Part shown: positions 20,001 to 47,733 of the stretch, in pieces | Layout: every line of letters starts with the position of its first letter | Numbering within the stretch: position 1 is the stretch's first letter | NCBI GenBank assembly: GCA_035258265.1 | Contig: DATEVZ010000312.1 | Span: 1-47,737 of the forward strand | Length of the DNA: 47,737 nucleotides | Reading direction: 5' to 3' | From: Candidatus Acidiferrales bacterium | GTDB lineage: Bacteria > Acidobacteriota > Terriglobia > Acidiferrales > UBA7541 | The notes under the pieces: generated by a model | Database searches by the model: none | The model's input: the letters and a program-made list of their open reading frames with translations, nothing else | What the model was told of the DNA's origin: nothing | Made by a program: the position numbers and the translations under genes

Positions 20001-20109
20001 ATTAAAAGCCCAATCGCGGAATTACAGTTTGCTGGACGATTTGAATACGCGCCCGCGCACTACGTATCTCGCGCGTGTGCGCAATCCGAATCCGGAGATT
20101 CACGAGTAG
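17026..20109 (+). CDS. actB: Alternative complex III subunit ActB (molybdopterin-oxidoreductase-like domain fused to a 4Fe-4S ferredoxin domain)
   Basis: Tat signal [22 protein letters not shown], length 1027 aa, and C-terminal Cys clusters [37 protein letters not shown] and CTYCVQRI...CQGACP. Confidence 0.95.
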
Positions 20110-20113
20110 ATTC

Positions 20114-22871: not shown

Positions 22872-23000
22872 CCGCAGCCCGTTGCTGGGGTTTTCAGGAG
22901 GTCGGAGCTTTAGCTCCGCCAATAAACGTGACTCTGTTGCAGGGGCTTTCGTCTCTGCGGGCGAGTTCGGATCTTTTAACGCGGTAGAGGAAAATCTTAG

Positions 23001-23870
23001 TTGCGTGGATCTGCCAATTTCGACTTGAAACAAAAATGTCTCGCGGCGCTCGCGACAAGCGTCGCCGCCCTGGCGCTCGCGTCCAGCGCCAGAGCCCAAC
23101 TAACATCGGACCCCCTGCAAAGCGTGGGCGTGCGCCCGGAGCTCCTGAAACAGGTGGGAATCGACCAGAAACTGAACCAGCCCATCCCCCTAAATCTCGC
23201 GTTCCACGATGAAAACGGCAAGACCGTGCAACTCAACGAATACTTCGGCCAGAAGCCGGTTATCCTCACACTGGTGTATTACAACTGCCCGATGCTCTGC
23301 ACGCAAATCCTGAACGGCGTCGAATCGGGACTAAAAGAACTGCCGATGGATATCGGCAAACAGTTCAACGTGGTCACCGTCAGCATCGACCCAACCGACA
23401 CACATGTGCTGGCCTCGGTGAAACAGGAGATGTACACCGGAATGTACGGCCGCACCGGTGCCGCTCAAGGATGGCATTTCCTTACTGGCGATGAACCGCA
23501 AATCAAACAACTCGCCGCCGCCGCCGGCTTCCGCTACGCTTACGATCCCGATACCAAGCAGTTCGCGCACGCCAGCGCCATCATGATCTTGACACCCGAA
23601 GGAAAAATTTCGCGCTATCTCTACGGCATTCAGTTCCCTTCGCGCGACCTGCGTCTGGGCCTGGTGGAAGCGTCGGAAGGAAAAATCGGCTCGCCCGTGG
23701 ATCAGGTTTTGCTCTTTTGCTACCACTACGATCCACACACCGGAAAATATGGCTTACTGATTTCGCACATCATCCAGGCCGGTGGAGCGCTTACCGTGTT
23801 GATCATTGGAGTGGTTGTGCTGATTTTGTTTCGCGGCGAGCATTACGCGCTGCCGCAAAGAAAGGCATGA
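23001..23870 (+). CDS. SCO1/SenC-family copper chaperone (CuA assembly)
   Basis: Thioredoxin-like CxxxC motif YYNCPMLCTQ, a downstream His (FAHASAIMIL), a signal peptide, and a C-terminal TM. The start is TTG at 23001 or 23022. Confidence 0.85.
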   Translation: MRGSANFDLKQKCLAALATSVAALALASSARAQLTSDPLQSVGVRPELLKQVGIDQKLNQPIPLNLAFHDENGKTVQLNEYFGQKPVILTLVYYNCPMLCTQILNGVESGLKELPMDIGKQFNVVTVSIDPTDTHVLASVKQEMYTGMYGRTGAAQGWHFLTGDEPQIKQLAAAAGFRYAYDPDTKQFAHASAIMILTPEGKISRYLYGIQFPSRDLRLGLVEASEGKIGSPVDQVLLFCYHYDPHTGKYGLLISHIIQAGGALTVLIIGVVVLILFRGEHYALPQRKA

Positions 23871-23929
23871 ACGCGGACGCTGCGCGAAAGCCCGCTCCTC
23901 CGCGAAAGGCTTACTCAGAGAGATTATGA
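23867..23929 (+). CDS. 20-codon bridging mini-ORF ([20 protein letters not shown]) between the SCO gene and ctaC
   Basis: Its ATG overlaps the SCO stop (ATGA, 23867-23870). Its TGA overlaps the ctaC ATG (ATGA, 23926-23929). Read directly from the sequence, with no homology evidence. Confidence 0.2.
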   Translation: MNADAARKPAPPRKAYSERL

Positions 23930-24921
23930 CTGGTCTGATTCAATCGAGCTTGCACCCCCTAGCCGCGGCGGCCATGCTGATCCCGCTCAAGCCGAGGGCC
24001 GCTTCCTCCATCGCCCAAGGTGTGGATAACCTATATTTCGCACTGACGGTGATCACGCTCTTTTTCACCATCCTGATTTTCTCCACCATTTTCTTTTTCA
24101 TGATCAAGTACCGCCGCCGCTCTCCGGACGAAATCCCTGCGGACACCGGCGAGCACCTGGGCCTGGAACTGACCTGGACGATCGTCCCCACCCTGATCAC
24201 TGTGTTCATTTTTATCTGGGGTTCCAGTTTGTACTTTGAAAATTCCAGACCACCGGAAGCTGCCACCGAAATTTTTGTCGTCGGCAAGCAATGGATGTGG
24301 CATATCCAGCATCCCGAAGGTGTGCGCGAAATCAATGAGCTGCACGTCCCGGTGAATACGCCGATCAGCATCACCATGACCTCAGACGACGTCATCCACG
24401 ATTTCTACATCCCCGCATTCCGCGTGAAGAAAGACGCCGTTCCCGGCCGCTACACTTCACTCTGGTTCCAAGCCACCAAGATTGGCACCTATCACATTTT
24501 TTGCGGCCAATACTGCGGCGCGGACCATGCCGAAATGATCGGCTGGGTCTACGTAATGTCGGGCACCGATTACGCTGCGTGGCTCTCCGGCGGCGCAAGG
24601 AACGAATCAATGGCGCAAACCGGCGAGCGGCTCTTCAACCAGCTCGGCTGCGTCACCTGCCACGTTACGGACGGCACCGGCCGGGGGCCCTCCCTGGTCG
24701 GCCTCTACGGCAAACCGGAAAAATTGCGCGACGGCAGCACAAGGGTCGTGGATGAGACCCTCATCCGCCAGGCCATCGTCAATTCCAATTCCATCCCGTT
24801 ACCTAATTATCCGCCGATCATGCCCTCCTTCCAGGGCCAGGTTAACGAGGAGCAGGTGCTGCAGCTGATCGCCTACGTGAAATCGCTCGGCGCGGAAGAA
24901 AGGAAGACCAACGGCAAATGA
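23926..24921 (+). CDS. ctaC: Cytochrome c oxidase subunit II with a fused C-terminal cytochrome c domain (caa3-type)
   Basis: Two N-terminal TM helices, CuA motif [15 protein letters not shown], and C-terminal haem c motif CVTCH. Confidence 0.95.
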
Positions 24922-26567
24922 GCACCACGGTCATTGCGGAACCGCCCGGCCATGAAGTTCCGGCTGGATCGCGCGTCAACTATCTGAACGCGAACTACGG
25001 CGTGAAGTCCTGGCTCTTTACCACGGACCACAAGCGCATCGCGCTGCTGTATCTCGGCTCGATCACTCTGATGTTTTTTGTTGGCGGCTTTTTCGCAGTG
25101 ATGATGCGCCTGCACCTCATCGAGCCCCAGGGCGCCTTGGTCGCTCCCGAAACCTACAACAAGCTGTTCACCATGCACGGAGTCATCATGGTGTTTTTCT
25201 TCCTGGTGCCTTCGATTCCCGCCACCTTGGGCAATTTCCTCGTGCCCATGATGATCGGCGCGCGCGACCTGGCTTTCCCGCGGCTCAACCTTCTCAGCTG
25301 GTACATCTACATCATCGGTGCGGCGTTCACGCTTTACGCCGTCATTTCCGGCGGCGTGGACACCGGATGGACGTTCTACACGCCCTATAGCAGCACGTTT
25401 TCGCACACCAGCGTGATCCCTACGGCTCTCGGCGTGTTCATCACCGGATTCTCCTCGATTCTCACGGGATTGAATTTCGTCGTCACCATTCACAAAATGC
25501 GTGCTCCCGGGCTAACCTGGTTCCGGCTCCCGCTTTTCATCTGGGCCATGTACGCCACCAGCATCATTTTCATTCTGGGCACGCCGGTGATCGCGATCAC
25601 GCTGTTCCTCTTGTTCCTCGAACGCGTCATGCACATCGGCATCTTTGACCCCGCCATTGGCGGCGACCCGATTCTGTTCCAGCATCTTTTCTGGTTCTAT
25701 TCCCACCCCGCCGTGTACATCATGATTCTGCCCGGCATGGGTGTGATGAGCGAACTGATTACCTGCTTCTCCCGCAAGCGGATTTTCGGCTACAGCTTCG
25801 TGGCTTTCTCCAGCTTGGCGATCGCGATCATCAGTTTTTTGGTCTGGGGACATCACATGTTCGTCACCGGCCAATCCATCTACGCGGGGCTGATTTTCTC
25901 GGTGCTGAGTTTCCTGGTGGCGATCCCCTCCGCAGTAAAAGTTTTCAATTGGACGGCCACGCTCTATAAAGGCTCGATTTCCTACGACGCCCCGATGCTC
26001 TACGCGCTCGGCTTCATCGGCCTGTTCACCATGGGCGGCCTCACGGGACTGTTCCTGGCGTCGCTCGCCACCGACGTCCATCTCAACGGCACCTATTTCA
26101 TCGTCGCCCATTTCCACTACATCATGGTCGGCGGCGCGGTGATGGCGTACCTCGGCGGCATTCATTTCTGGTGGCCGAAAATTACCGGGCGCTTGTACCC
26201 GGACGGTTGGGCTCGATTTGCCGCGCTGGTAATCTTCGTCGGATTCAATCTCACTTTCTTTCCGCAATTTATGCTGGGATACCTGGGCATGCCGCGCCGC
26301 TATGCCGTTTATCCCAGCGAATTCCAGGTCTTGAACGTGATGTCGTCCGCCGGCGCTTCCATTCTCGGCATCGGCTATTTGATCCCGCTGATCTATTTGC
26401 TCTGGTCCATTCGTTATGGGCCGGTCGCTGGACCGAATCCCTGGCGCGCCAAGGGCCTTGAATGGCAAACGCCTTCGCCGCCGCCCACTGAAAATTTTGA
26501 GGAGATTCCTATCGTTACCGAAGACGCCTACGATTACGCGGGTGTCACAGGAGCAGGCCGTGGCTGA
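24918..26567 (+). CDS. ctaD: Cytochrome c oxidase subunit I
   Basis: A 12-TM haem-copper oxidase with WGHHMF and HFHYIM motifs. It has an ATGA overlap with ctaC. Confidence 0.97.
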
Positions 26568-26568
26568 G

Positions 26569-27255
26569 ATGGCCGCACATGGCGCGCATCCCGAGGGATT
26601 CGCACATCAATTCGAAGATATGGAGCAGCAGCGCGAGGCCGGTAGCCTGGGGATGTGGGTGTTTCTGGTCACCGAAATCATGTTCTTCGGCGGCCTGTTC
26701 GCCACCTACATCATTTACCGCTCGCTGTACTTGCCTTCCTTTGAAATCGGCAGCCGCTTGCTCAATGTGAAGTTTGGTGCGGCCAACACGGCCGTACTGA
26801 TCGGCAGCAGCCTGACCATGGCTCTTGCGATCCACGCCGCGCAGGCCGGCAAGAAAAAATCCGAGCAGGTGATGTATCTGGTCCTCACCATGATTCTGGG
26901 CGCCGCTTTCCTGTTCTTGAAATTCAATTTCGAGTGGCGCGCCGATTATGCCGAACACCTGATCCCCGGATTTGGCTTCATCATTCGCCCCGAGTGGGGC
27001 GGCGCCGGCTCGCATGTCCCCATGTTTTTCTGCTTTTACTTCTTCATGACCGGCTTGCACGCGCTGCACATGATTATCGGGTTCGGCATCCTCAGCGTCC
27101 TGACGGTCATGGCCTCGCGCGGCCGCTTTAATTCAGAATACTACGCGCCTCTTGAAGTTAGTGGCCTCTACTGGCACTTCGTGGACATCGTGTGGATTTT
27201 CCTGTTTCCGCTGCTCTACTTGATCGGCGGGCGATACGTCATGGGAGGCCACTAG
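26569..27255 (+). CDS. ctaE: Cytochrome c oxidase subunit III
   Basis: The ATG is 1 nt after the ctaD stop. The sequence MWVFLVTEIMFFGGLF...WHFVDIVWIFLFPLLY is typical of subunit III. The ORF-track start at 26416 is an upstream extension inside ctaD. Confidence 0.9.
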   Translation: MAAHGAHPEGFAHQFEDMEQQREAGSLGMWVFLVTEIMFFGGLFATYIIYRSLYLPSFEIGSRLLNVKFGAANTAVLIGSSLTMALAIHAAQAGKKKSEQVMYLVLTMILGAAFLFLKFNFEWRADYAEHLIPGFGFIIRPEWGGAGSHVPMFFCFYFFMTGLHALHMIIGFGILSVLTVMASRGRFNSEYYAPLEVSGLYWHFVDIVWIFLFPLLYLIGGRYVMGGH

Positions 27256-27590
27256 TGTCCGCGCACATCGTGCCGGTGAAAACCTACGCCGCAATATTCA
27301 TCGCGCTACTGGTCCTTACCGCCCTCACCACCGCCGTGGCTTTCGTGGACCTCGGCCCGTTGAATACGGTCGCCGCGCTGACGATTGCGGTGATCAAGAT
27401 GCTCCTGGTTATCCTGTTTTTCATGCACGTGAAATACAGCAGCGGCCTAACCAGAATCGTCATCATCGCCGGCTTTTTCTTCCTGGCGATCCTCGTGTCC
27501 CTTACGCTGGCTGACGAATTCACCCGCGGCTGGACTCCCAACCCCGGCGCCTGGAGCATGATAGCCCCATTCCTCCGCGACCTCTTCTAA
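27255..27590 (+). CDS. ctaF: Cytochrome c oxidase subunit IV (caa3 CtaF-type small subunit)
   Basis: The GTG start overlaps the ctaE TAG by 1 nt. It has three TM helices and the IKMLLVILFFMHVKYSS motif. Confidence 0.8.
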   Translation: MSAHIVPVKTYAAIFIALLVLTALTTAVAFVDLGPLNTVAALTIAVIKMLLVILFFMHVKYSSGLTRIVIIAGFFFLAILVSLTLADEFTRGWTPNPGAWSMIAPFLRDLF

Positions 27591-35415: not shown

Positions 35416-36267
35416 TTACCTCTGTTTCAATTTCTTCACGTCCATCGTCGGTGCCGGAAACTTCAGTTTCATTCCCTCCAGCGTCTCGGAGATGATGTGC
35501 GAAACCGCGAGATTGCGGAACCATTTCTTGTTCGCGGGAATAATGAACCACGGCGCTGCTTTCGTATTGCAACGTGTGAGCGCGTCCTGGTACGCCTCGG
35601 TGTAATCGTCCCAGAATTTCCGCTCGTTGAAATCCGCTTCCGAAACCTTCCAGCGCTTCTCCGGGTCGTCCACGCGCTTGATCAGGCGTTTCTTCTGTTC
35701 GTCCTTGTTGATGTGCAGAAAGAATTTCAAAATCTTGACGTTATTTGCGTCCAGATACTCCTCGAACTGATTGATTTGATCGTAGCGCTGCGACCACATC
35801 GCCTTCGGCACCAGATTGTGCACTCGAACGATCAGCACATCCTCGTAATGCGAGCGGTTGAAGATTCCGATATCGCCATATCCCGGCACCGCGTGGTGCA
35901 CGCGCCACAAGTAATCGTGCGCAGCCTCTTGCGGCGACGGCGCCTTAAAAGCCGTAACGCTGCAACCCTGTGGATTCACCCCGGACATTACGTGCCGGAT
36001 GGTGCCGTCCTTCCCCGCCGCGTCGCGCCCCTGAAAAACGACCAGCAATGCGTGCTTACGATTGGCGTAAAGAAGGTACTGCAGGTGATCCCGTTTCTTG
36101 ATGGCCTTATCTAGGCTAGCTTTCATTGTGTGATTCTTGCCCCAGCCTAGTGTCTCGTTAGGATCGAACTTCTCCAATTTCACTTTCTTTCCCGGCTTTA
36201 CCATCAGTTCCTTCGTGCAGTTCGTAGCCACGGGTCCGCGCGCCTTCCTGTTTTTTGCCTGTTGCAT
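35416..36267 (-). CDS. ppk2: Polyphosphate kinase 2 family protein (single-domain PPK2)
   Basis: Walker A FQGRDAAGKDGT, then HDYLWRVH and IFNRSHYEDVL motifs. An alternative, better-supported start is the ATG at 36204, preceded by GAAGGA at 36214-36209. Confidence 0.9.
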   Translation of the reverse strand: MQQAKNRKARGPVATNCTKELMVKPGKKVKLEKFDPNETLGWGKNHTMKASLDKAIKKRDHLQYLLYANRKHALLVVFQGRDAAGKDGTIRHVMSGVNPQGCSVTAFKAPSPQEAAHDYLWRVHHAVPGYGDIGIFNRSHYEDVLIVRVHNLVPKAMWSQRYDQINQFEEYLDANNVKILKFFLHINKDEQKKRLIKRVDDPEKRWKVSEADFNERKFWDDYTEAYQDALTRCNTKAAPWFIIPANKKWFRNLAVSHIISETLEGMKLKFPAPTMDVKKLKQR

Positions 36268-36269
36268 TC

Positions 36270-36339
36270 CTAGCGACGCACTTTAGTGCGCCAGCGGTGT
36301 CGCGGCAACCATCGATGGCGGTCTGAAGACCGCCGCTAC
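36270..36339 (+). repeat. Copy B of the ~70-nt structured repeat
   Basis: Sequence CTAGCGACGCACTTTAGTGCGCCAGCGGTGTCGCGGCAACCATCGATGGCGGTCTGAAGACCGCCGCTAC. Hairpin 3 is a perfect 7-bp stem (GGCGGTC-TGAA-GACCGCC). It starts 3 nt beyond the first ATG of the ppk2 ORF. Confidence 0.8.
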
Positions 36340-36370
36340 AAAGGCTGGTGCCGTTTCCGCGCACGCTTCA

Positions 36371-36380
36371 ATCACGTGAT
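36371..36380. promoter_or_regulatory. Perfect 10-nt palindrome ATCACGTGAT in the ppk2/tmk-like divergent region
   Basis: Seen directly in the sequence. The binding factor is unknown. Confidence 0.3.
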
Positions 36381-36472
36381 GAGCGACCACACTCCAACAA
36401 ATTCCAACACCCTCAATCTTTGGTTGTAACACTTTTTTCACGTTTGGGCTTATAGTTCCGCGATATCATAGA

Positions 36473-37240
36473 ATGTTGTCGTCAGGTTCCACACGAATGG
36501 GGATACTTACGTCAGAAGTTCCTACCGCCATCGAGCCGCTCCCAATCAAAGAGCCGGCGCCCAAGCGCCAATATCCCGGCGCCCTGGTTGTAGTCGAAGG
36601 AATTGACGGCTCCGGCAAAAGCACGCAGCTCTATCTCCTGAAACGCTGGCTAGAAATCGGCGGTTACCGCATCCACTTCACGGAGTGGAACTCCTCACCG
36701 CTAGTCAAGTCCGCCACCCGCCGCGGCAAACAGCGGCGACTGCTCACGCCGACCACATTTTCACTGCTTCACGCCGCCGATTTCGCGGACCGCTGCGAAC
36801 GCCAAATCATGCCGCTGCTCCACGGTGGCTATCTGGTCCTCGCCGACCGCTACATCTACACTGCTTTCGCGCGCGATAGCGCCCGGGGCTGCTCCCCACA
36901 CTGGCTGCGCAATCTTTACAGCTTCGCGCCTACTCCGGACATCACCTTTTATTTTCGGGCCCCGCTCGACGTGGCCGTTAACCGCATCGTCGCTGGCCGA
37001 CCCAAGCTGAAATATTACGAAGCCGGCATGGACCTGGGTATTTCGCTGGACCGCGCCGAAAGTTTCCGTATCTTCCAGGAACGCATCCTCAACAACTACG
37101 ACCAGATGATCGATAGCGATCATTTCGTCTTGATGGATGGCACCGTGCGCGTAAACAAGCTCCAAAAACTCATGCGCCAGATTGTCGGCGAACGGATTTC
37201 GCTGCAACAATTTGCGCCCAAAAACTCGAAGAACAAATGA
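36473..37240 (+). CDS. Thymidylate-kinase-like P-loop kinase, paralogue 1 (divergent, extended)
   Basis: Walker A VVEGIDGSGKST and a DRY-type motif LADRYIYT. At 255 aa it is longer than a canonical Tmk (roughly 210 aa, recalled rather than looked up). Confidence 0.8.
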   Translation: MLSSGSTRMGILTSEVPTAIEPLPIKEPAPKRQYPGALVVVEGIDGSGKSTQLYLLKRWLEIGGYRIHFTEWNSSPLVKSATRRGKQRRLLTPTTFSLLHAADFADRCERQIMPLLHGGYLVLADRYIYTAFARDSARGCSPHWLRNLYSFAPTPDITFYFRAPLDVAVNRIVAGRPKLKYYEAGMDLGISLDRAESFRIFQERILNNYDQMIDSDHFVLMDGTVRVNKLQKLMRQIVGERISLQQFAPKNSKNK

Positions 37241-38055
37241 CGCGCTCCGGAAAAACTTCGCTGAAAACCAATGGCTCAAACGGCCGCCCTCACAAGAAAC
37301 AGAAGGCCGCCGCGGTGGAAGCGCCTTCGCGCTTTTACGGCGCTCCTCTGCCCGGAGTGAAACCCGAAGAACTCAGCGGCACACTCATCGTGATTGAAGG
37401 CACTGATGGTTCGGGCCGTTCCACGCAAATCTCGCTCCTGACCGAGTGGCTCGAATCCGAAGGCTTCGCGGTACAAACCATGGGCCTGCGCCGCTCCTAT
37501 CTCGTCGGCGAAGACATTGACGGCTTGCTGGCCGAGAATGCCGTCACGCGCATGACCCTCTCGCTGATGTACAGCACCGATTTCTTCGATCAGCTCGAAC
37601 GCCGCATTCTCCCCGCGCTTCGTTCCGGTCTGATCGTTCTCGCCGATCGGTACATTTTCACCTTGATCGCGCGCTCCGCCGTCCGCGGTATTGGCCGCGA
37701 CTACTTGCATGGAATTTACGAAACTGCTTTGTGCCCGGACCTCACCTTTTGGCTCAACGTGCGTCCCGAAGTCGCTTTCGATCGCGAGTTCAAAAAGTCG
37801 CAGACCATCAGCTACTGGGAATCCGGCCGCGACATGTCGCTTTCGAATGATCTGTTCCAGTCCTTTATTCGTTATCAATCCATGATCAAGCGCGAATTCG
37901 AGTATCTTTCCAGGCGGCACGGCTTCATCGAAACGGACGGCGAAAGCAGCGTCTCCGAGGTGAACAGGGTGTTGCGGAAGCGCATCGCCTTGCATCTTGG
38001 CATCCGGAGCACGCACTACAAGCCTTCGCACGCCTTGTCGCATCTCTGGCGATAG
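37237..38055 (+). CDS. Thymidylate-kinase-like protein, paralogue 2, with a Lys-to-Arg Walker A
   Basis: VIEGTDGSGRST, with the Arg codon CGT at 37417-37419 where the P-loop Lys is expected. It also has LADRYIFT and a basic ~45-aa N-terminal tail. It overlaps paralogue 1 by ATGA. Confidence 0.8.
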   Translation: MTRSGKTSLKTNGSNGRPHKKQKAAAVEAPSRFYGAPLPGVKPEELSGTLIVIEGTDGSGRSTQISLLTEWLESEGFAVQTMGLRRSYLVGEDIDGLLAENAVTRMTLSLMYSTDFFDQLERRILPALRSGLIVLADRYIFTLIARSAVRGIGRDYLHGIYETALCPDLTFWLNVRPEVAFDREFKKSQTISYWESGRDMSLSNDLFQSFIRYQSMIKREFEYLSRRHGFIETDGESSVSEVNRVLRKRIALHLGIRSTHYKPSHALSHLWR

Positions 38056-38059
38056 ACGA

Positions 38060-39619
38060 GTGGCCGCGCCCGTTCAATTGGCAGCCATTGACGCTGGCTC
38101 CAACGCCATCCGTCTCGTCATAGCCCGCGCCACTTCCCCTAAAGACATTGAAATCCTCGATAACGAACGCGCATCAGTGCGCTTGGGGCACAACGCGTTC
38201 ACCCGCCGTGTCATTAGCGGTGCCACGATTTCTCGCGCCGCGCGTGCGTTTCGCCAGTTCCGCGATCGCATGGATCAGTACAATGTTGGCGCATACCGCG
38301 CTGTTGCCACTGCCGCCGCGCGCGAGGCCCGCAATTATCGCCGTCTGATGGACCGCATCCGCAGAAAAGCGGGCATCGAGCTGGAAGTAATCGGCGCGGA
38401 GGAAGAGGCACGCCTGGTTTGCTCCGCGGTCGAGTGGGCTGTAGGCGATCGGGTGCAGCCGCGGCTGATTTTCGATCTCGGCGGCGGGAGCCTCGAACTA
38501 AACTTCTACCAACGCGGCGTTCTGGAACATCGCATCGGCCTGCCGCTCGGCACCATCCGCCTGATGGAAACCTATTCGATCGAAGGCGCGATCGACGAGG
38601 ACGACGCCAACCGTCTCCGCCATCACATCCTCTCGTTGCTGCGCAGTGCGATGCCTTCTCCTCCCCGGCTGAGCCGCTCGCTTGCAGTCGCCTGCGGTGG
38701 AAACGCCGAAGCTCTTGTACGCATCGCTCAAGGCCCGCCGATCGAACGCATTCCCACCATCAACACCCGGCTCCTTCGCGATCAAACCTGGCGAATGTTG
38801 AGCCTCGATATTCCCGGCCGCATGCGCGTCTTCCGCCTGCGCAAAGACCGCGCCGAGGTCATCGGCATAGCCGCGATTATTTTCAACACGCTTGCCAAAT
38901 GGCTCGACCTGCGCACCATGCTCGTTCCCGGCGTCGGCGTGCGCGAAGGCATCCTGCTCGACCTCGTTGCCGAACAATATTCCGTCCGCATCACTTCCGA
39001 AGAGGAAAAGGGCCGCGCCTCCGAACTGCTAGCCAGCGCCCGTTGGTTCGCGCGTCGCCTGGATTACAATCCGCAGCACGCCGAACAGGTCGCGCGCCTC
39101 GCGCTCTCTCTTTTCGATCAGTTGCGGCCTATCCATGAAATGGGCGCAGACCTCCGGTTAGTTCTCGAAATGGCCGCGTTGCTGCATGACGTCGGCCATT
39201 TCATCTCGCGCAAGTCGCATCACCGCCACGGCGAATACCTCATCCGCAACGGCGAAATCCCCGGCCTCCGTGGCTGGCGCCGCGACATGGTCGCTGCCAT
39301 CGTCCGTTACCACAATTCCAAATCTGAGCCGGAACTGGAGCACGCCTCGTACGCGGCCCTCGATAGCGAGCGCCGCCGCCACGCCCGCCTGCTCACCAGC
39401 CTGCTCCGTATCGCCGAGAAACTCGAGTCCGAGCACGCCCAGCACATTACCGGTGTGGACGTCCAGATTTCCGGCCACAAAGCCATTTTCGTGATCCGCG
39501 CTTCGGAGGGCACGCGCCTCGACCTCATGGGCCTCGAACGCAAATCCACGCTCTTCGAACGCGAATTTCACCTCAAACCAGAATTCAGGCGCGCTCAGGG
39601 CAAAGAAAAGGTAGCCTAG
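38060..39619 (+). CDS. ppx: Exopolyphosphatase / guanosine pentaphosphate phosphohydrolase (Ppx/GppA) with a C-terminal HD-like domain
   Basis: ASKHA-fold start AAIDAGSNAIRLVIA, then DLGGGSLEL, and C-terminal LLHDVGHFISRKSHHRHGEYLI. The GTG start at 38060 lies 4 nt after the preceding stop. Confidence 0.9.
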   Translation: MAAPVQLAAIDAGSNAIRLVIARATSPKDIEILDNERASVRLGHNAFTRRVISGATISRAARAFRQFRDRMDQYNVGAYRAVATAAAREARNYRRLMDRIRRKAGIELEVIGAEEEARLVCSAVEWAVGDRVQPRLIFDLGGGSLELNFYQRGVLEHRIGLPLGTIRLMETYSIEGAIDEDDANRLRHHILSLLRSAMPSPPRLSRSLAVACGGNAEALVRIAQGPPIERIPTINTRLLRDQTWRMLSLDIPGRMRVFRLRKDRAEVIGIAAIIFNTLAKWLDLRTMLVPGVGVREGILLDLVAEQYSVRITSEEEKGRASELLASARWFARRLDYNPQHAEQVARLALSLFDQLRPIHEMGADLRLVLEMAALLHDVGHFISRKSHHRHGEYLIRNGEIPGLRGWRRDMVAAIVRYHNSKSEPELEHASYAALDSERRRHARLLTSLLRIAEKLESEHAQHITGVDVQISGHKAIFVIRASEGTRLDLMGLERKSTLFEREFHLKPEFRRAQGKEKVA

Positions 39620-39623
39620 AGGT

Positions 39624-40118
39624 ATGATTCTTTATCTAGTACGCCACGGGATCGCCGTTGATCGAGAGGATCCCCAAGCTCCCTCGGAGGCGGAGCGTCC
39701 TCTGACCGCCAAGGGAGTCCAAAAAACGCGCGCCGCAGCGCTCGGCCTGCAGTCCCTGCACGTAAAGCCGGATGTGCTCATCACTAGCCCCTACGTCCGC
39801 GCTGCGCAAACCGCGGAAATCTTCGCCGAAACCTTGGGCTTTTCGCTGCAAAAAATCCGCACACATGACGCATTGAAACCGGCCGCTAATCCTGCTGACA
39901 TCGTCAGGGAAGTGATTCGCGTGCGCACCAAGGAAGTAATGTGCTTCGGCCATGCGCCGCATCTTGATCTGACGATCGCGCACATCGCCGGCGCTCGCGC
40001 TGTCTTCACCACGCTGAAAAAAGCTGGCGTTGCCTGCCTGGAATACACAGCTTCACATGGAAAGTGGGAATTGCGGTGGATTTTGACGCCGCGGATGCTG
40101 CGTCAGCTAGCGGATTGA
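39624..40118 (+). CDS. sixA: Phosphohistidine phosphatase SixA (histidine phosphatase superfamily)
   Basis: N-terminal LYLVRHG catalytic motif and a later GHAPH. Length 164 aa. Confidence 0.85.
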   Translation: MILYLVRHGIAVDREDPQAPSEAERPLTAKGVQKTRAAALGLQSLHVKPDVLITSPYVRAAQTAEIFAETLGFSLQKIRTHDALKPAANPADIVREVIRVRTKEVMCFGHAPHLDLTIAHIAGARAVFTTLKKAGVACLEYTASHGKWELRWILTPRMLRQLAD

Positions 40119-41062
40119 AGGCGCGGTGCCTCGGTGCTCTCGGAAGTTTGCATGATGTGAATGTTTTGGAATCCGGCGCGCCATACCTGCCACAGCGATT
40201 CCTTCGCCCGGCCGTGATTCTCCGAAGCGCCGCCCGCATTGGCTGAACTGGCTCCATTGCCGCCTATCAGTGATCGGAACTCGTCCAGTCGCGTCTTTCG
40301 CGCCTCTTCAATTTTCTGATACCAGTGCAGCACGTCCGCCCGCTGCAATTTGGCGCGCTGCCGCCGGATTTCGCTGCGCAGTACGTCCATATCGTGCACT
40401 TCGCCCAGCAAATCCTGGATACGCTTCAAATTCTTGCTCCACGGCTCATAGCGCTGCGGCACGAAATTTTCCAGGGTGTAGCGGAACCCTTTCAACCCGA
40501 TCCGCAGCCGGTGCCACGCAACGCGGCTGCGCCCCTTGCGCGCGCGTTGGTAAAGTTCGGCGGCCTCATTGAGCCGCGTCAACGCCAGCCGCTGAAACAC
40601 CACGCTCTCCAGCGGAAAGAACTGTGCCTTGCCCCCCAGCTTCTGCGCCCACTTCCGCCAGCTCTTGCGGTCGAAGTCGTCCAGCGCTTTCTCCGCCTCT
40701 TTTTGCTGCTTGCTTTCGGCCTGCGCCAGAATCTTCAGCACATGCTTCCGGACCGGATTGTCCGCGACCGAAAGCTCTTTCAGCCATTCCTGCTCTACCT
40801 GAGTATCCCGCAACTCCCCCAGCGCGTGAAATAATTCGCGGCTGTCTTTCTTCAGCTTTCGCCACCCGCGGTCCGAATTCACTTCGCTCAGCGCCTCCGC
40901 CATTGTCCGGCAGCGCCGCAGCGCCACGCGCAGGTCATGTACATCCTTGGATTTCCAACCCTCTTGGACGGCATTCGCCAGTTCCAGGACGCGGTTCATC
41001 CAGTTCTCCAATCCAATACGTTTCGTTGAACCACCCGCGGGCAAGGAGATCGTTTGTGCCAT
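40103..41062 (-). CDS. CHAD-domain protein (polyphosphate-granule-associated family)
   Basis: Repeated conserved-His helical blocks: VHDLRVALRRCR, WHRLRIGLKGFRY and LGEVHDMDVL. It converges on sixA and overlaps it by 16 nt. Confidence 0.85.
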   Translation of the reverse strand: MAQTISLPAGGSTKRIGLENWMNRVLELANAVQEGWKSKDVHDLRVALRRCRTMAEALSEVNSDRGWRKLKKDSRELFHALGELRDTQVEQEWLKELSVADNPVRKHVLKILAQAESKQQKEAEKALDDFDRKSWRKWAQKLGGKAQFFPLESVVFQRLALTRLNEAAELYQRARKGRSRVAWHRLRIGLKGFRYTLENFVPQRYEPWSKNLKRIQDLLGEVHDMDVLRSEIRRQRAKLQRADVLHWYQKIEEARKTRLDEFRSLIGGNGASSANAGGASENHGRAKESLWQVWRAGFQNIHIMQTSESTEAPRLQSAS

Positions 41063-42344: not shown

Positions 42345-43334
42345 TCAATTTACAGTCTTGCCAAAATTCTCCGGAGCCAGTTCGTTCTGGTGCTGCCGCA
42401 TCATCTCGCGAAACGCCTCGAAGAGCTCCGGGTCCCACCAGCCGCGCCCTGCCTCTTCCTCCATTAAATCCAGCGCAACTTCAGGAGTGAAGGCCACCTT
42501 ATATGGCCGGTCCGTCGTCAGCGCGTCATACACATCCGAAATCTGCAAGATTCGCGCAGTCAGCGGAATCTGGTCGCCGTGCAAGCCATCGGGATAGCCC
42601 GTACCATCATGCTTCTCGTGGTGGTGGCGAATAATCGGCAACACCAAGCGAAATGTTTTCAAGGGTGCGCAAATGCGCTCGCCCACCACGGGATGTTTCT
42701 TCATCACCACGATTTCTTCCGACGTTAGCGGCCCCGGTTTCAGCAAAATCGAATCCGGCACTACGACCTTGCCGATGTCGTGCACGATACCCGCACGCCG
42801 CAATGCCTTGATGTGCTCCTCTGGCACGCCCAAAATTTCTCCCATGCGCGTGGACATCTCCGCCAGACGCTCGCAGTGCCCGTGTGTATACGGATCGCGC
42901 GCTTCGATGCTATATGCCAGGCTCAATAGCACCGCCTCCGCGTTTTCCAACTCGTCCGTGTATTGCTTCAACCGCAACAACGAGCGCGTGCGCGCCAGCA
43001 GTTCGTTCAAGTCAATGGGCTTGCTCAGAAAATCGTCCGCGCCGGCGTTGATGCCCATGATACGGTCTTCGGTCGCGGTAAGCCCGGTGATCAGCACCAC
43101 CGGAGTAAGTCGCGTTTCCGGCGTGGCTTTGATGTGCCGGCACACCTCGAATCCATCCATCCCCGGCATCACGATATCGAGCAAAATCAGATCGGGCCGA
43201 AATGAGGCGCATTCCGCAATCGCAGTGGGGCCGTCGCTGGCGTCGCGCACTTCGAATCCCTCGCGCCGCAATAGCAGCTTCAGCGCGGTGCGCGCGGCGG
43301 CTTCGTCATCGACGATCAAAATCTTGTCATGCAT
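42345..43334 (-). CDS. Response regulator with HD-GYP (cyclic-di-GMP phosphodiesterase-type) output domain
   Basis: REC domain (ILIVDDE..., DLILLDIVMPGMDG) followed by HD-GYP motifs HGHCERLA, HDIGK and HHEKHDGTGYPDGL. Confidence 0.9.
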   Translation of the reverse strand: MHDKILIVDDEAAARTALKLLLRREGFEVRDASDGPTAIAECASFRPDLILLDIVMPGMDGFEVCRHIKATPETRLTPVVLITGLTATEDRIMGINAGADDFLSKPIDLNELLARTRSLLRLKQYTDELENAEAVLLSLAYSIEARDPYTHGHCERLAEMSTRMGEILGVPEEHIKALRRAGIVHDIGKVVVPDSILLKPGPLTSEEIVVMKKHPVVGERICAPLKTFRLVLPIIRHHHEKHDGTGYPDGLHGDQIPLTARILQISDVYDALTTDRPYKVAFTPEVALDLMEEEAGRGWWDPELFEAFREMMRQHQNELAPENFGKTVN

Positions 43335-43601: not shown

Positions 43602-44447
43602 CTATTCCTTGCGAACCGTCGCTTCAATCAGCCCGTGCGGCTCGTCGGTAGGTAAAAATACTTGAGCGGGGTTGTCCATGCCGAAGGACGAAAGGTCCAC
43701 CAGGTTGAAATGCTTATTCGGCAGTGAGAGGCGAATTTCGCGGAGGCGCTCGAAGTTCCTCAGTACCGCCTCCCCCATCGCATATAAAGTGTGCTGTAGC
43801 GACTCGCTGTCGTGCTCCGCAAACGTCTCCAGCATCGTTTGGCGTATGCCGTGCCAGTGTTGGCTGTATTCGATCTCGCCGCTTTCATATAGCCAGTCCG
43901 CGTGGATGGAGGTCGAGAGGATCCTGTTGCGGTCTTCCCTGAGCGTGGTGTACGGATCTCGCAAGAATCCTTCAAACGCTGACTTCGTGGTTTTCAGCAC
44001 AATCAAATCCACAATCCCCGATCGAATCAAGGTTCCTTCGCGCGTTCCGCTCAGCGTCGCAGTACGTTTCTCTTCGCCTCCACGCACAAATGCCGACGCA
44101 TGCGGTTTGCCGCCGATCACGATCCGGTTCCACAGATTTTCCGCGGCCTCAATGCCGACCCGCGCGACCTGCGGGTTGTACGTCAGGAAATGCTCGATCA
44201 GGTGCTGACAAAAATCTTCCACCGCTTCCACGGGATATTGCCGCGCCAGGGCGTACACTGTGTTTTTCATCGTGTCGGTTGGCAGGATCTTCGTGTTGTC
44301 GCCTTTGGTGTGTGCGGTTTCGAAATCGCCCTCGAATGAAATTCCCAGCGTCAACTCGCGAATATCGTGGCGTCCCTCTTGCCGAAGCACTCGCAGCAAA
44401 CGAATCCGCGATTTACCGTAATTGTTTTCCGCGAGCTTGATCGTCAT
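43602..44447 (-). CDS. Factor-independent urate oxidase (uricase)
   Basis: NNYGKSRIRLLRV at the N-terminus, then TDTMKNTVYALA. The 281-aa, two-T-fold-domain length fits uricase. Confidence 0.9.
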   Translation of the reverse strand: MTIKLAENNYGKSRIRLLRVLRQEGRHDIRELTLGISFEGDFETAHTKGDNTKILPTDTMKNTVYALARQYPVEAVEDFCQHLIEHFLTYNPQVARVGIEAAENLWNRIVIGGKPHASAFVRGGEEKRTATLSGTREGTLIRSGIVDLIVLKTTKSAFEGFLRDPYTTLREDRNRILSTSIHADWLYESGEIEYSQHWHGIRQTMLETFAEHDSESLQHTLYAMGEAVLRNFERLREIRLSLPNKHFNLVDLSSFGMDNPAQVFLPTDEPHGLIEATVRKE

Positions 44448-44450
44448 CCA

Positions 44451-44789
44451 TCAGCTCCCACGATATGTGGAATACCCGTAAGGGCTCAGAAGCAGCGGAA
44501 TATGGTAGTGCTCTGTTGTGTCCTGAACCTCGAACGCGATCGTAATTTGCGGATAGAGCGCGCGAATCTTGCGCGCCTGAAAATAGGCGTGCGTTTCAAA
44601 CGTGAGCCTGTACGTCCCCTCCGCCAGCGTTCCCGGCTCCAGAAGATGCCGCAGCCGCCCGTCCGCGTCCGTCGCACCGCGGCTGATTTCCTTCCAGCCG
44701 CCGGCCTTCTGAATTTCCAGTGTGACCTGCACGCCCGCAGCGGGCCGTCCCACAGAAGTATCAAGCACGTGCGTGGTAATCTGGCTCAT
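44451..44789 (-). CDS. uraH: 5-hydroxyisourate hydrolase (transthyretin-like)
   Basis: MSQITTHVLDTSVGRPAAGV at the N-terminus and the C-terminal YSTYRGS signature. The 112-aa version starts at 44789 (ATGA overlap with the upstream stop), whereas the ORF-track start at 45041 is an extension. Confidence 0.9.
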   Translation of the reverse strand: MSQITTHVLDTSVGRPAAGVQVTLEIQKAGGWKEISRGATDADGRLRHLLEPGTLAEGTYRLTFETHAYFQARKIRALYPQITIAFEVQDTTEHYHIPLLLSPYGYSTYRGS

Positions 44790-46324
44790 ACTGCTAAAAG
44801 TTTCTCCAAGCGCAGCCGCGTAATTTTCTTCTGCTCGTCCGCGGCCATTCGCAATTCCACTTCCAGGTCGTTCGCCAGGCGCTCTTGAATCGCTTTCAGA
44901 ATTTCCTCGCTGGTTTTCCCCGTGGCGCAAATCAGAAACACGTGCCCGAAGGTTGTCTGGTACGCTTCGTTCGCGGCCGCTAGCACAGCGAGCGTTTCCG
45001 CGGATGCCTTCTGCGCCACGGATTGCTCGCCAGCGGACCAACGCTGCGCCGTTGCCGTTTGTTTCGCAGCCGCCTTCTTTCCGCCGATCGCGGGATGGGC
45101 GTGAAATGCCGCAAGCCAGTCTCGGCGACTAAGCGTCGCCCAAGCATCATCCGCCGCATCGTAAAGGCCCGCCGCATCGCTGAAGGGCCGACGCGCCAAC
45201 ACCTGCTCGACCCATTTTTTCGAAACGCAGCAATCCAGGAGCGCCTTAGCCGCCTGGGCTTGTGCCATCTGGTTCAATCGTTCAATCCCGGTAAGCCTGT
45301 CCGCCGCCTGCGACGCCCGCCCGAAAGCACGGAAACGGCTGACTCCACCGTCCGGAAAAATATTCAGCCGCACATGAGTGGCCGGACCTGCGTCGTGTAG
45401 CTGGTTGCGAAAAATATGAAGACGGTTCGCCTTCAGCGGAATCTGCGGTAGCAGTTGCTGCCAGTCCACGGCCGAGGAGTCAGACGTCAAGCGGGAGATC
45501 TCCGCTTTGCCACCTTCCGCGTAGCAAACCTCTACCGAACAGCTGTCGGGAAAATTTCCTTTGAAATGTGTGGTGTCAATTTCAATCCGATCGATCGAGC
45601 CTGCCATCCCCAATTTAACGATTGCCCAATCGTGGCCCGGTCCCCGACGGCGACGCGTTTCCCAACCGTCACTCATCTGTTTTGCGCGCCCCGGCATCAG
45701 CAAGTTCAACGGCGCGCTATAGAATTGATCGCTGGACGCAACGGCGCGCCCGCCATTTTCGACCGCCGCCAGGTCGAATTCTCCTTTGCTCATTCGCGCC
45801 GCGTCGGGGATCACTTCCCCATATAGTCGCAGCCGCGCCACGCCGCCGTCGGGATATATTTTGAAGCGCACGTGCGTGAAGCGTCCGGCGTGTTCGATGG
45901 CGACATGATTTTGCGAATCGCCTTTCAGTGCGGTTTCCGGTAACAATTCCGTCCACTTTGCCGTCGAGGCGAGGAGTTGTTTTTTTTCGTCCTTGTAGGG
46001 TACTGCGCCGCCGATTTTGCAACCCTCGAGCGAAAATCGCCCGGGATAGTTTCCCGTGAAGAAGCTGGTATCCACTACCACGCCGCGGAGAATTCCCGGC
46101 AAACCCAACCGGATAATGCACCAATCGCATCCCGGCGTGCGCCGCCGGCGCGTCTCCCAGCCATCCATCCAATGTCCGCGCGACGTGAATCTTCCTTCGA
46201 CAAAAATCGGCTTCGCCTGCTTCAACAGATTTTCTTTGGGAGCGAAAAATTCGTCGTTGGCCGCAATCACGCGCCCGCCCAGCCGCTCGGCTGCCAGATC
46301 AACAAGTTGAGTGAAATCGTTCAT
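44786..46324 (-). CDS. Fusion protein: allantoicase (two repeats) plus a C-terminal OHCU decarboxylase (UraD) domain
   Basis: The N-terminal ~340 aa has duplicated allantoicase blocks (DGWETRRRR occurs twice, with FTGNYP and FKGNFP). The C-terminal ~165 aa has OHCU-decarboxylase features (AFHAHPAIGGKK, FLICATGKTSEEIL). Confidence 0.85.
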   Translation of the reverse strand: MNDFTQLVDLAAERLGGRVIAANDEFFAPKENLLKQAKPIFVEGRFTSRGHWMDGWETRRRRTPGCDWCIIRLGLPGILRGVVVDTSFFTGNYPGRFSLEGCKIGGAVPYKDEKKQLLASTAKWTELLPETALKGDSQNHVAIEHAGRFTHVRFKIYPDGGVARLRLYGEVIPDAARMSKGEFDLAAVENGGRAVASSDQFYSAPLNLLMPGRAKQMSDGWETRRRRGPGHDWAIVKLGMAGSIDRIEIDTTHFKGNFPDSCSVEVCYAEGGKAEISRLTSDSSAVDWQQLLPQIPLKANRLHIFRNQLHDAGPATHVRLNIFPDGGVSRFRAFGRASQAADRLTGIERLNQMAQAQAAKALLDCCVSKKWVEQVLARRPFSDAAGLYDAADDAWATLSRRDWLAAFHAHPAIGGKKAAAKQTATAQRWSAGEQSVAQKASAETLAVLAAANEAYQTTFGHVFLICATGKTSEEILKAIQERLANDLEVELRMAADEQKKITRLRLEKLLAV

Positions 46325-47733
46325 ACCGAGCCTCGCAACAGAACATGGCCTATGGGGCTCGCGGAAAATTCTCCGCGCTCGAAAATCTTGCGGCCTCGCA
46401 AGAATGTCGTGGCAACCATTCCCTTAAGTTCGCGTCCGGCGTACGGCGTGATTTTGTGACGGTGATGTAGTTGGACCGGATCCACGCGAAACTTTTCGTC
46501 GGGATTCCAGATCGCAAAATCGGCGTCGCAACCCACCGCGATGGACCCCTTGCGTCGATCCAACCCCGCGAGCCGCGCCGGGCCCTCGCATAACCACTTC
46601 GCAACGTGCGTGACAGCATAGCCGCGCGCGCTTGCCTGCGTCCAGACGGCAGGCAAACTCAGTTGCAGGGACGCGATCCCGCCCCACGCGCGCAAGAAGT
46701 CGCCCTCCTCAGGCAGCTTCATGGCTGGAGGGCACGGCGAATGATCCGTCGCTATGAAATCAATCGTGCCGTTCGCGAGTCCTTCCCACAATTTCTCGCG
46801 ATTCTCCTGCTCGCGAATCGGCGGCGCGCATTTGAATTCCGTCGCGCCCTCTGGAACCTCCTCTGCGGTGAACGTCAAATAGTGCGGGCAGGTCTCGACG
46901 CTAACTTTGGCGCCGTCGTTTCGCGCGTGCTGCAGCACCGGAATCGCGTCGCACGACGATAAGTGCACGATATGAATCCGCGCGTTAAACTCGCGGCTCA
47001 AGCGCAGTAGCAGCGCGACCGCTTCGTTCTCCGCATCGCGCGGACGGGACGCGAGCCACCTGCTATAGCGCCGCGCGGACGCATTCTTGGGCAGGTTTGC
47101 AACGGCTTTCTCGATCGGCTCCGGCATCTCTGCGTGCCCCAACAGAGGCGCGCCCAGTGCGACAAGTTCCGGCAGGGCGCTGCGAAGATGTTCCTTTGTC
47201 ACGAATTCGAATTCCGGAACGCCGCTGGGCACCAGGAAACACTTGAAACCGAAAACGCCCGCTTCCCATAGCGGCCGTAGCTCGGCAATGTTTCCGGGAA
47301 CCAGGCCGCCCCAAAATCCCGCATCCACCCAAAGTTTGCCCGCCGCTGCGGCCAGCTTTTCGCGAAACGCTCCTGCCGATGTCGTTGAGGGGATGCTATT
47401 GAGCGGCATCTCAACCGAGGTCGTTACGCCGCCCGCAGCAGCCGCGCGTGTGGCGCTCGAAAATCCTTCCCACTCCGTGCGGCCAGGCTCATTGATATGA
47501 ACGTGCGTGTCCACAATCCCGGGCATCACCACCAAGTCGCCGGCCTCGTGGATGGCAACTCGGCTGGGAACTTCGTTGAACTCGGTCAGCGCCGTTACCA
47601 CGCCGCCACGAACGTGTATCGCCGCCGCTCGCTCACCATCGGGCGTGACAACACGCTTTCCGCGAACGATGAGATCATCTGTTGCGGTCGGCCCTGGCGA
47701 CGAATTCCCTGAGGGATCAGGAGGCTTATTCAT
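46321..47733 (-). CDS. allB: Allantoinase (cyclic amidohydrolase superfamily)
   Basis: Metal-binding motif GIVDTHVHINEPGRTEWEGF, 470 aa, and an ATGA overlap with the allantoicase fusion gene. The start codon is 4 nt from the window end. Confidence 0.9.
   Translation of the reverse strand: MNKPPDPSGNSSPGPTATDDLIVRGKRVVTPDGERAAAIHVRGGVVTALTEFNEVPSRVAIHEAGDLVVMPGIVDTHVHINEPGRTEWEGFSSATRAAAAGGVTTSVEMPLNSIPSTTSAGAFREKLAAAAGKLWVDAGFWGGLVPGNIAELRPLWEAGVFGFKCFLVPSGVPEFEFVTKEHLRSALPELVALGAPLLGHAEMPEPIEKAVANLPKNASARRYSRWLASRPRDAENEAVALLLRLSREFNARIHIVHLSSCDAIPVLQHARNDGAKVSVETCPHYLTFTAEEVPEGATEFKCAPPIREQENREKLWEGLANGTIDFIATDHSPCPPAMKLPEEGDFLRAWGGIASLQLSLPAVWTQASARGYAVTHVAKWLCEGPARLAGLDRRKGSIAVGCDADFAIWNPDEKFRVDPVQLHHRHKITPYAGRELKGMVATTFLRGRKIFERGEFSASPIGHVLLRGSV

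Follow-up and report, generated by a model that had tools for sequence, protein, structure and literature searches.

We analyzed positions 1 to 47,737 of contig DATEVZ010000312.1 (assembly GCA_035258265.1), a stretch of DNA from a Candidatus Acidiferrales bacterium that we refer to as the window, and focused on six adjacent genes between positions 35416 and 41062. Two of these genes (gene 1 and gene 2) resemble thymidylate kinases (Tmk), and the other four encode PPK2, Ppx, SixA-like and CHAD-domain proteins. We conclude with high confidence that the region is a polyphosphate (polyP) metabolism cluster of an Acidobacteriota (Acidoferrales-like) genome that centers on a family-3 polyphosphate kinase (PPK3), with the two Tmk-like genes in the places of its catalytic (cPPK3) and second (rPPK3) subunits. 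The homology of the pair, the subunit types, the gene order, the coupling geometry of the two genes and their conservation across phyla were all observed directly.

PPK3 was described by Höfmann et al. (J Biol Chem 2026, PMC12995831; bioRxiv 10.1101/2024.08.28.610084). In the enzyme of Sulfolobus acidocaldarius (SaPPK3), the tandem dTMP-kinase paralogs of the Sulfolobus ppx/sixA/CHAD operon form a heteromeric polyP kinase. Saci_2019 is the catalytic cPPK3, which makes polyP from ATP, and Saci_2020 is the rPPK3, which shows no activity by itself but enhances that of Saci_2019 when the two form an alpha2-beta2 complex. Neither of the two proteins has dTMP kinase activity, and a separate gene, saci_0893, encodes the real Tmk. 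The reaction is reversible, with a 50-fold preference for ATP formation from ADP and polyP, and the enzyme acts on ADP and ATP and weakly on GDP. In the published neighborhood analysis, bacterial operons carry the c/r pair together with PPX, SixA, CHAD, Pst and Nudix genes. SixA is presented there as a generic neighbor in PPK1 and PPK3 operons whose role is unknown, and most PPK3 genomes are reported to lack both PPK1 and PPK2. The preprint (10.1101/2024.08.28.610084) names the Acidobacteriota among the few bacteria with PPK3 homologs. The PPK3 operon family is already published, and the window cluster is therefore no system of a new kind. The initial annotation of this DNA, made from the sequence alone, knew of no described module that joins these genes; this statement is outdated, since the ppx/sixA/two-dTMP-kinase/CHAD operon is the founding example of PPK3 (PMC12995831).

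Gene 1 matches the catalytic subunit of PPK3

Judged by its sequence, gene 1 is a clear cPPK3 ortholog. Its best match among PDB sequences was STK_15430/ST1543 of Sulfurisphaera tokodaii (2plr, 5h70; 206 bits, E 4e-60, 47% identity), with an alignment that spans 208 residues, and the best canonical Tmk in the PDB scored about 50 bits, that is, about 150 bits below the cPPK3 match. Its sequence identity is 48% with Saci_2019 and 60% with a Nitrososphaera homolog. To separate the two subunits we used hidden Markov models (HMMs) for c-type and r-type sequences, which were made from sequence sets divided according to the Walker A residue and drawn only from loci of other lineages, with the close relatives of the window left out. 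Gene 1 scored 366 bits with the c-HMM and 211 bits with the r-HMM, and gene 2 scored 274 bits with the r-HMM and 196 bits with the c-HMM. The characterized proteins fell on the expected sides, Saci_2019 as c (271 vs 200 bits) and Saci_2020 as r (137 vs 93 bits). Another pair of c/r HMMs, iterated by phmmer and hmmsearch on the open reading frames (ORFs) of the loci, was discarded, as both converged on the same 165 ORFs and left the subunits unseparated.

The residues of gene 1 agree with this assignment. Its P-loop (GIDGSGKS, K49) and DRY motif (R126) are both invariant in 79 out of 79 c-type sequences, and it carries the c-specific TEWNSS, K86, P93, H100, R107, R176 and K180. The c-specific segments are 97-100% conserved across the 79 c-type sequences, which come from 79 species-level genomes. 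For instance, the basic residues K86, R107, R176 and K180 are conserved at 97-100% in c-type proteins and lost in r-type proteins, and all four are present in gene 1; they may belong to the positively charged cleft for polyP that cPPK3 has.

By the same kind of evidence, neither of the two window proteins is a canonical thymidylate kinase, because the dTMP-site segments are replaced. Where canonical Tmk has TREPGG, gene 1 has TEWNSS; its LLHAADF aligns with the canonical LLFSADR, and the canonical F-x-A-D-R segment is conserved in neither gene 1 nor gene 2. We take the TREPGG and F-x-A-D-R segments to be the dTMP site of canonical Tmk. The NCBIfam dTMP-kinase equivalog model TIGR00041 (cutoff 83.25 bits) is passed by gene 1 by 0.35 bits (83.6 bits) and missed by gene 2 by 1.75 bits (81.5 bits). 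Such borderline scores explain why PPK3 subunits are systematically misannotated as 'dTMP kinase' in public databases. By analogy with Saci_2019, the product of gene 1 would synthesize polyP from ATP and phosphorylate ADP at the expense of polyP, and would have no dTMP kinase activity.

Gene 2 takes the place of the second subunit

Gene 2 is presumably the second subunit of PPK3, with a regulatory or scaffolding part. Its best PDB sequence match is again ST1543 (135 bits, vs 53 bits for canonical Tmk). In an AlphaFold2 model of the protein (predicted local distance difference test score, 85), whose first 27 residues are modeled as disordered, the best fold matches in the PDB were the ST1543 structures, with template modeling (TM) scores of 0.91-0.92. 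Canonical Tmks matched the model with TM scores of 0.77-0.89 and were 22-26% identical to it in the fold alignment.

Close inspection of the alignment showed that gene 2 has a Walker A motif in which arginine replaces lysine (GTDGSGRS, R61), that it keeps ADRY (R138), and that TMGLRRS stands where canonical Tmk has TREPGG. It shares with Saci_2020 the r-type residues G83, Y112, Q119, L143, F221 and N243, which substitute for E71, H100, R107, A131, Y209 and Q231 of the c type. The c-type basic residues are lost in gene 2 (K86 to L98, R107 to Q119, R176 to S188 and K180 to S192) and are absent from Saci_2020 as well. Gene 2 and Saci_2020 also cluster together in a neighbor-joining tree, which was computed with a simple distance method on 134 columns and included only two partial canonical Tmk outgroup sequences. 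In this tree, PPK3 separated from canonical Tmk in 99 out of 100 bootstrap replicates and the c clade was recovered in 96 out of 100.

The Walker A arginine is not peculiar to this genome. Among second subunits outside the Sulfolobales (loci L005-L084), 74 out of 74 combine a Walker A arginine (G.D..GR[ST]) with the DRY arginine, and R146, R150 and R183 are also conserved in these sequences. Saci_2020 alone keeps the Walker A lysine (GKT), has DGY in place of DRY, and carries W102.

Conservation and distribution of the gene pair

For a survey of gene neighborhoods, we took one genome per GTDB species and verified as loci the best 80 of 447 genome matches that were confirmed by tblastn. The 447 matches were rejected as an estimate of the family size, because the search patterns and the filter of E <= 1e-3 would also pass canonical Tmks. 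An ordered same-strand pair, with the Lys-type gene followed by the Arg-type gene, was found in 75 out of 80 loci. Within the flanks, PPX occurred in 59 of the 80 loci, SixA in 37, CHAD in 35 and all three in 25, and at least one of PPX, SixA or CHAD was nearby in 63. A PPK2 gene lies <=7 kb from the pair in 11 out of 80 loci and is arranged in no fewer than four different ways. This proximity is far above chance; by a rough estimate, a gene with one or two copies would be expected there at well below 1%.

The 80 loci span at least 8 phyla. The surveyed Acidobacteriota include Acidoferrales-like genomes, Terriglobia and Pyrinomonadaceae, and the other taxa are about 20 Verrucomicrobiota, 11 Nitrososphaerota, Chloroflexota, Nitrospirota, Sumerlaeota, Goldiibacteriota, Armatimonadota, Thermodesulfobacteriota and Longimicrobiales. 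All six genes recur in exactly the layout that they have in the window, with a divergent PPK2 gene and a convergent CHAD gene, in the loci L001-L003, L005, L006, L009 and L010, and the upstream flanks of L001-L003 are unlike that of the window. The linkage is therefore not confined to this genome; the initial annotation had said that confinement to one genome would make it a chance juxtaposition. As had been suspected, the two Tmk-like genes have a functional tie to polyP and are distinct from housekeeping Tmk.

The family is also abundant in protein databases. More than 8000 sequence clusters match gene 1 (E <= 1e-10) and about 5300 match gene 2 (E <= 1e-5), and in a library of representatives at 50% identity, 358 clusters match at E <= 1e-30. 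The top database matches are 80-100% identical sequences from soil metagenomes, and those with names are 'dTMP kinase' from Candidatus Acidiferrales or Acidoferrales.

Some lineages depart from this layout. In the Verrucomicrobiota (L022-L030, L033, L036, L041-L042, L048-L050, L057-L058, L071 and L073), the pair usually has no detectable SixA or CHAD neighbor, the PPX gene, where present, lies about 1 kb downstream of the pair past an intervening gene, and the c subunit has CDRY instead of ADRY. In two metagenome-assembled genomes of Pyrinomonadaceae (L082:3598-13809 and L054:1-8700), the PPK3 cluster has, immediately downstream of CHAD, a PPK1 gene whose product carries all four of the PP_kinase domains. 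One of them, L082, has PPK2, SixA, cPPK3, rPPK3, PPX, CHAD and PPK1 within about 10 kb and so holds all three polyP kinase families. The presence of PPK1 and PPK3 in one cluster argues against a simple replacement of PPK1 by PPK3.

Fusion proteins were a further observation. A 460-amino-acid protein of Alicyclobacillaceae (P0361/WP_258112839.1) joins a c half and an r half within a single chain, with a degenerate P-loop (GSDYSGHY) in the r half. Two proteins of 650-696 amino acids (P0374 and P0384) combine two Tmk-like domains with a Ppx-GppA domain III/HD module and lack the N-terminal Ppx domains. A cPPK3-like Tmk domain (GLDGSGKS, T[RS]WN[ST]S, DRY, ARDSVRG) was also found inside large fusion proteins. 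Five bacterial or metagenomic proteins of 770-1280 amino acids (P0412, P0435, P0446, P0469 and P0478) consist of an MFS transporter, a Tmk-like domain and a DUF2252/APH-like domain, and P0469 is named as an Elusimicrobiota MFS transporter. A 794-amino-acid protein from a protist transcript (P0464; EukProt EP00164, Ancoracysta twista) has an N-terminal SPX domain followed by Tmk-like and DUF2252/APH-like domains. SPX is a eukaryotic sensor of phosphate and inositol pyrophosphates that is found on the VTC polyP synthase. The SPX domain of P0464 could thus point to a eukaryotic polyP enzyme derived from PPK3, and the bacterial fusions could represent such enzymes coupled to a membrane transporter.

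Organization of the locus

The six genes, their families, their coordinates and their junctions are as the initial annotation gave them, according to the ORFs, to Pfam and NCBIfam profile searches of the six products and to direct reading of the sequence (Table 1). The profile searches that it proposed all returned matches (PPK2, Thymidylate_kin for both Tmk-like proteins, Ppx-GppA, His_Phos_1 and CHAD).

Table 1. Genes and the divergent intergenic region of the cluster, in window coordinates
Feature	Position	Strand	Assignment and evidence
ppk2	35416-36267	-	PPK2 PF03976, E 1.8e-72; TIGR03709, 390 bits; single-domain, predicted class III type
ppk2-cPPK3 divergent intergenic region	36268-36472		Conserved promoter-proximal element at about 36422-36472
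Gene 1, cPPK3	36473-37240	+	Thymidylate_kin PF02223, E 2e-20; predicted catalytic subunit of family-3 polyphosphate kinase
Gene 2, rPPK3-position paralog	37237-38055	+	Thymidylate_kin PF02223, E 8e-20; presumably regulatory/scaffolding
ppx	38060-39619	+	Ppx-GppA PF02541, E 2.7e-36; PF21447, E 7.9e-26; PF01966; C-terminal domain III (HD-type)
sixA-like	39624-40118	+	His_Phos_1 PF00300, E 1.8e-12; TIGR00249; branch 1 histidine phosphatase
CHAD-domain gene	40103-41062	-	CHAD PF05235, E 5.6e-29, 102 bits vs cutoff 25.6

Direct reading of the sequence shows that gene 1 and gene 2 overlap by an ATGA (37237-37240), by which the start of gene 2 is translationally coupled to cPPK3; this overlap is consistent with 1:1 co-expression of both subunits. 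The stop codon of gene 2 (38053-38055) is followed after 4 nt by the GTG of ppx, and the stop codon of ppx (39617-39619) is followed after 4 nt by the ATG of sixA. The convergent sixA and CHAD genes overlap by 16 nt (40103-40118).

Some of the starts probably lie further downstream than the ORFs suggest. In gene calls on metagenome contigs that encode an identical gene 1 protein, later starts were used for PPK2 (271 amino acids) and for gene 1 (247 amino acids). In window coordinates, the ppk2 start is thus probably near 36231 and that of gene 1 is probably the ATG at 36497. For ppx, the most likely start is the GTG at 38060 (519 amino acids) and not the TTG listed at 37997. An alignment of the intergenic region from five related loci has a sole conserved block at 36422-36472, which reads GGTTGTAACACTTTTTTCAC, then GTTCCG, then TAT(C/G)ATA. 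This block is probably the operon promoter or an operator. Its overlap with the first in-frame ATG (36473) favors 36497 as the true start of gene 1. A sigma-70 consensus scan found no site within the divergent ppk2-cPPK3 intergenic region, and a sigma-70 and terminator scan of the cluster found nothing exceeding the expectation from shuffled sequences.

The PPK2 of the window is, by its sequence matches, a single-domain enzyme of the class III type. Its best solved-structure matches are 5lc9/5ld1 and 5o6k (293-296 bits), followed by 6an9/6au0 and 6aqe (244-250 bits), and weaker matches are 5ll0/5llb (about 115 bits) and 3czq (95 bits). We take 5lc9/5ld1, 6an9 and 6aqe to be class III PPK2s and 5llb and 3czq to be class I; the top matches are then presumably class III enzymes of Meiothermus, Cytophaga and Deinococcus. 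Class III PPK2s convert AMP to ADP and ADP to ATP with polyP. CHAD, encoded at the other end of the cluster, is a family associated with polyP granules. The ppx product scored 213 bits with TIGR03706, under the cutoff of 307, and reached no NCBIfam equivalog cutoff, so that it may be of either Ppx or GppA specificity. The sixA-like product passed TIGR00249 marginally (75.8 bits vs a cutoff of 74.5) and has the RHG catalytic motif in LVRHGIA. The remark in the initial annotation that three Tmk-fold proteins stand side by side holds only loosely, because PPK2 shares just the generic P-loop kinase core with the dTMP kinase superfamily (available text of PMC12995831).

A tblastn search of the 47.7-kb window found no PPK1 and no third Tmk-like region. 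Elsewhere, the window has an ordinary chromosomal context (miaA, lpxI/lpxA, ACP and KAS, FdhD). Positions 14949-27590 hold an alternative complex III set (NrfD-like, multihaem cytochrome c, a 1027-amino-acid Fe-S subunit, ActD and cytochrome c), followed by SCO1 and then by the cytochrome oxidase subunits II (with cytochrome c fused), I and IV. Positions 43602-47733 hold a purine-degradation block on the minus strand, with a uricase, an allantoinase-like amidohydrolase and a 512-amino-acid fusion of allantoicase repeats and OHCU decarboxylase. A response regulator with an HD-GYP-type domain (42345-43334) adjoins this block.

Proposed function and alternative explanations

By analogy with SaPPK3, we infer that the window pair is enzymatically active and forms a heterotetramer, in which gene 1 (c) and gene 2 (r) would assemble as an alpha2-beta2 enzyme. 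This PPK3 would move the gamma-phosphate of ATP reversibly to and from polyP, with synthesis only at a high ATP/ADP ratio and with ATP regenerated from ADP and polyP at low energy charge. Family knowledge suggests that the co-transcribed Ppx would trim polyP to inorganic phosphate, that the CHAD protein would bind polyP granules, and that the divergent class III-type PPK2 would phosphorylate AMP and ADP from polyP. The SixA-like phosphatase would have an accessory role. Jointly, the genes of the cluster may act as an adenylate and phosphate buffer, in which, as we propose, PPK3 would be the former of polyP at high energy charge and PPK2 its consumer.

Several points weigh against this account of the region. 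The biochemistry of PPK3 is known from SaPPK3 only and from no bacterial PPK3. PPK2 is adjacent here, unlike in most PPK3 genomes, so the physiological direction of PPK3 may differ in this organism. Gene 2 keeps the DRX arginine and has instead lost the Walker A lysine, whereas the replacement of the DRX arginine in rPPK3 is the published explanation of the inactivity of the r subunit (available text of PMC12995831). As DRY is kept in all 74 second subunits outside the Sulfolobales, that explanation does not hold for most of the PPK3 family. In pairwise BLASTP, gene 2 is nearer to Saci_2019 (35%, 130 bits) than to Saci_2020 (29%, 90 bits), a preference that we explain by the strong divergence shown by Saci_2020, whose branch is the longest one in the tree. 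In the neighbor-joining tree, the r group was monophyletic in only 33 out of 100 replicates. The case for orthology of gene 2 and Saci_2020 is therefore made by the order of the genes, by the derived residues that the two proteins share and by the profile scores. We held back from treating gene 2 as a plain member of rPPK3, since the DRX replacement is not found in it and pairwise BLAST favors Saci_2019.

The pair might instead consist of (deoxy)nucleoside monophosphate ((d)NMP) kinases that, with PPK2, form a polyP-driven line from (d)NMP through (d)NDP to (d)NTP, a working hypothesis of the initial annotation that we now regard as very unlikely. Both proteins do match Pfam Thymidylate_kin, gene 1 just passes TIGR00041, homologs are named 'dTMP kinase' in databases, and the neighboring PPK2 can supply NDP and NTP from polyP. 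However, this explanation is largely refuted by the finding that Saci_2019 and Saci_2020 lack dTMP kinase activity and that only Saci_0893 has it (available text of PMC12995831). It also fits poorly with the replacement of TREPGG by TEWNSS in gene 1 and by TMGLRRS in gene 2, with the F-x-A-D-R segment that is not conserved, and with canonical Tmk matches about 150 bits weaker than the cPPK3 match. What survives is polyP-driven nucleotide phosphorylation in kind, but not the (d)NMP specificity of the pair; a more plausible source of the phosphorylation of AMP to ADP and ATP is the class III-type PPK2 next to the pair. The other idea raised at the outset, a phosphorelay associated with polyP granules in which SixA dephosphorylates phosphohistidine on a kinase or on CHAD, is likewise very unlikely. 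A SixA-family gene does begin 4 nt after the ppx stop and accompanies the pair in 37 of the 80 loci, and CHAD is rich in conserved histidines according to the family description. Yet more than half of the loci in the survey lack SixA, the cluster encodes neither a histidine kinase nor an HPt or receiver protein, and Tmk-fold P-loop kinases, unlike PPK1, are not known to use a phosphohistidine intermediate. The description of SixA as a generic neighbor of PPK1 and PPK3 also speaks against a dedicated relay (available text of PMC12995831). The idea that unrelated phosphate genes came together by chance in a single genome is refuted, and we give it practically no weight: relatives with different flanks have the identical six-gene layout, the ordered pair occurs in 75 of the 80 species-level genomes, and PPX, SixA or CHAD are nearby in 63.

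The remaining alternative concerns the mechanism and is one that we regard as possible but rather doubtful. Here the second subunit would be functional in binding nucleotide or polyP, or weakly catalytic, and the bacterial and Nitrososphaerota PPK3 would differ from the Sulfolobus paradigm. The Walker A arginine and the DRY arginine in 74 out of 74 second subunits outside the Sulfolobales, with R146, R150 and R183 conserved beside them, favor this view, as does the restriction of GK, DGY and W102 to Saci_2020 alone. That the site is so strictly conserved speaks for selection on the binding of a ligand. However, a change from lysine to arginine in Walker A normally cripples phosphoryl transfer in P-loop kinases, the r group has lost K86, R107, R176 and K180, and the r half of the fused Alicyclobacillaceae protein has the still more degenerate P-loop GSDYSGHY. 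We therefore put forward only tentatively that the second subunit outside the Sulfolobales binds a ligand and is possibly regulatory-sensing or weakly catalytic, and that an Acidoferrales-type PPK3 and a class III PPK2 form a two-enzyme adenylate buffer, in which PPK3 would lay down the gamma-phosphate of ATP as polyP at high energy charge and PPK2 would bring AMP and ADP back to ATP when the charge is low. If this is true, the Sulfolobus enzyme would be an atypical member of a widespread soil-bacterial family.

Implications

Returning to the PPK3 cluster as such, our analysis goes beyond the available portions of the published account in three respects. Uncultured soil bacteria commonly carry the family, which is not confined to 'a few'; PPK3 is found beside PPK2, and beside PPK1 in Pyrinomonadaceae clusters; and second subunits outside the Sulfolobales have an invariant lysine-to-arginine change in Walker A with DRY intact.

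Thousands of database proteins are labeled 'dTMP kinase' although they are PPK3 subunits. The Acidobacteriota and Verrucomicrobiota are dominant soil phyla, and their possession of a third family of polyP kinases matters to models of how microbes store phosphorus and buffer energy, as well as to surveys that score polyP potential by ppk1 and ppk2 alone. Mesophilic bacterial PPK3s could serve as catalysts for ATP regeneration, and the conserved lysine-to-arginine signature is a direct mutational handle on the function of the second subunit.

Comparison with known systems

Bacterial loci of the PPK1-PPX type have the same accessory genes as the window cluster (ppx, sixA and CHAD), but the window has no PPK1. 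A resemblance between the PPK3 and PPK1 neighborhoods is also noted in the available text of PMC12995831. Canonical Tmk (TIGR00041) has the superfamily fold, the P-loop, the DRX motif and the lid in common with the window proteins. It differs in the dTMP-site segments, which are replaced in the window proteins, and these fall outside the canonical clade (99 out of 100 replicates).

The two-domain class II PPK2 of P. aeruginosa (PA3455, PDB 3czp) offers a likeness of another kind, because it too pairs an active P-loop module with an inactive, oligomerizing paralogous module. In class II PPK2, however, the two modules belong to the PF03976 family and are fused in one chain, and AMP rather than ADP is phosphorylated. 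The analogy between class II PPK2 and PPK3 is drawn in the available text of PMC12995831.

The structural representative of cPPK3 is STK_15430/ST1543 (PDB 2plr, 4nzy, 4rzx and 5h70), which is the best solved match by sequence for both window proteins and by fold for gene 2. It entered the PDB under the name of a thymidylate kinase, comes from a thermophilic archaeon and lacks an N-terminal extension.

The closest comparison is with the SaPPK3 operon of S. acidocaldarius, which consists of saci_2017 (sixA), saci_2018 (ppx), saci_2019 (cPPK3), saci_2020 (rPPK3) and saci_2021 (CHAD). The genes of that operon are co-directional in the order sixA-ppx-c-r-CHAD, whereas the window has c-r-ppx-sixA with a convergent CHAD gene. 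The host of the window cluster is a mesophilic soil bacterium, and a class III-type PPK2 adjoins the pair, whereas Sulfolobus has neither PPK1 nor PPK2. The second subunit of the window combines DRY with the lysine-to-arginine change in Walker A, where Saci_2020 has the lysine and DGY, and both window proteins carry N-terminal extensions of about 35-47 residues. With these differences, the two loci have the same five gene families, and in both of them the tandem dTMP-kinase paralogs are ordered c and then r.

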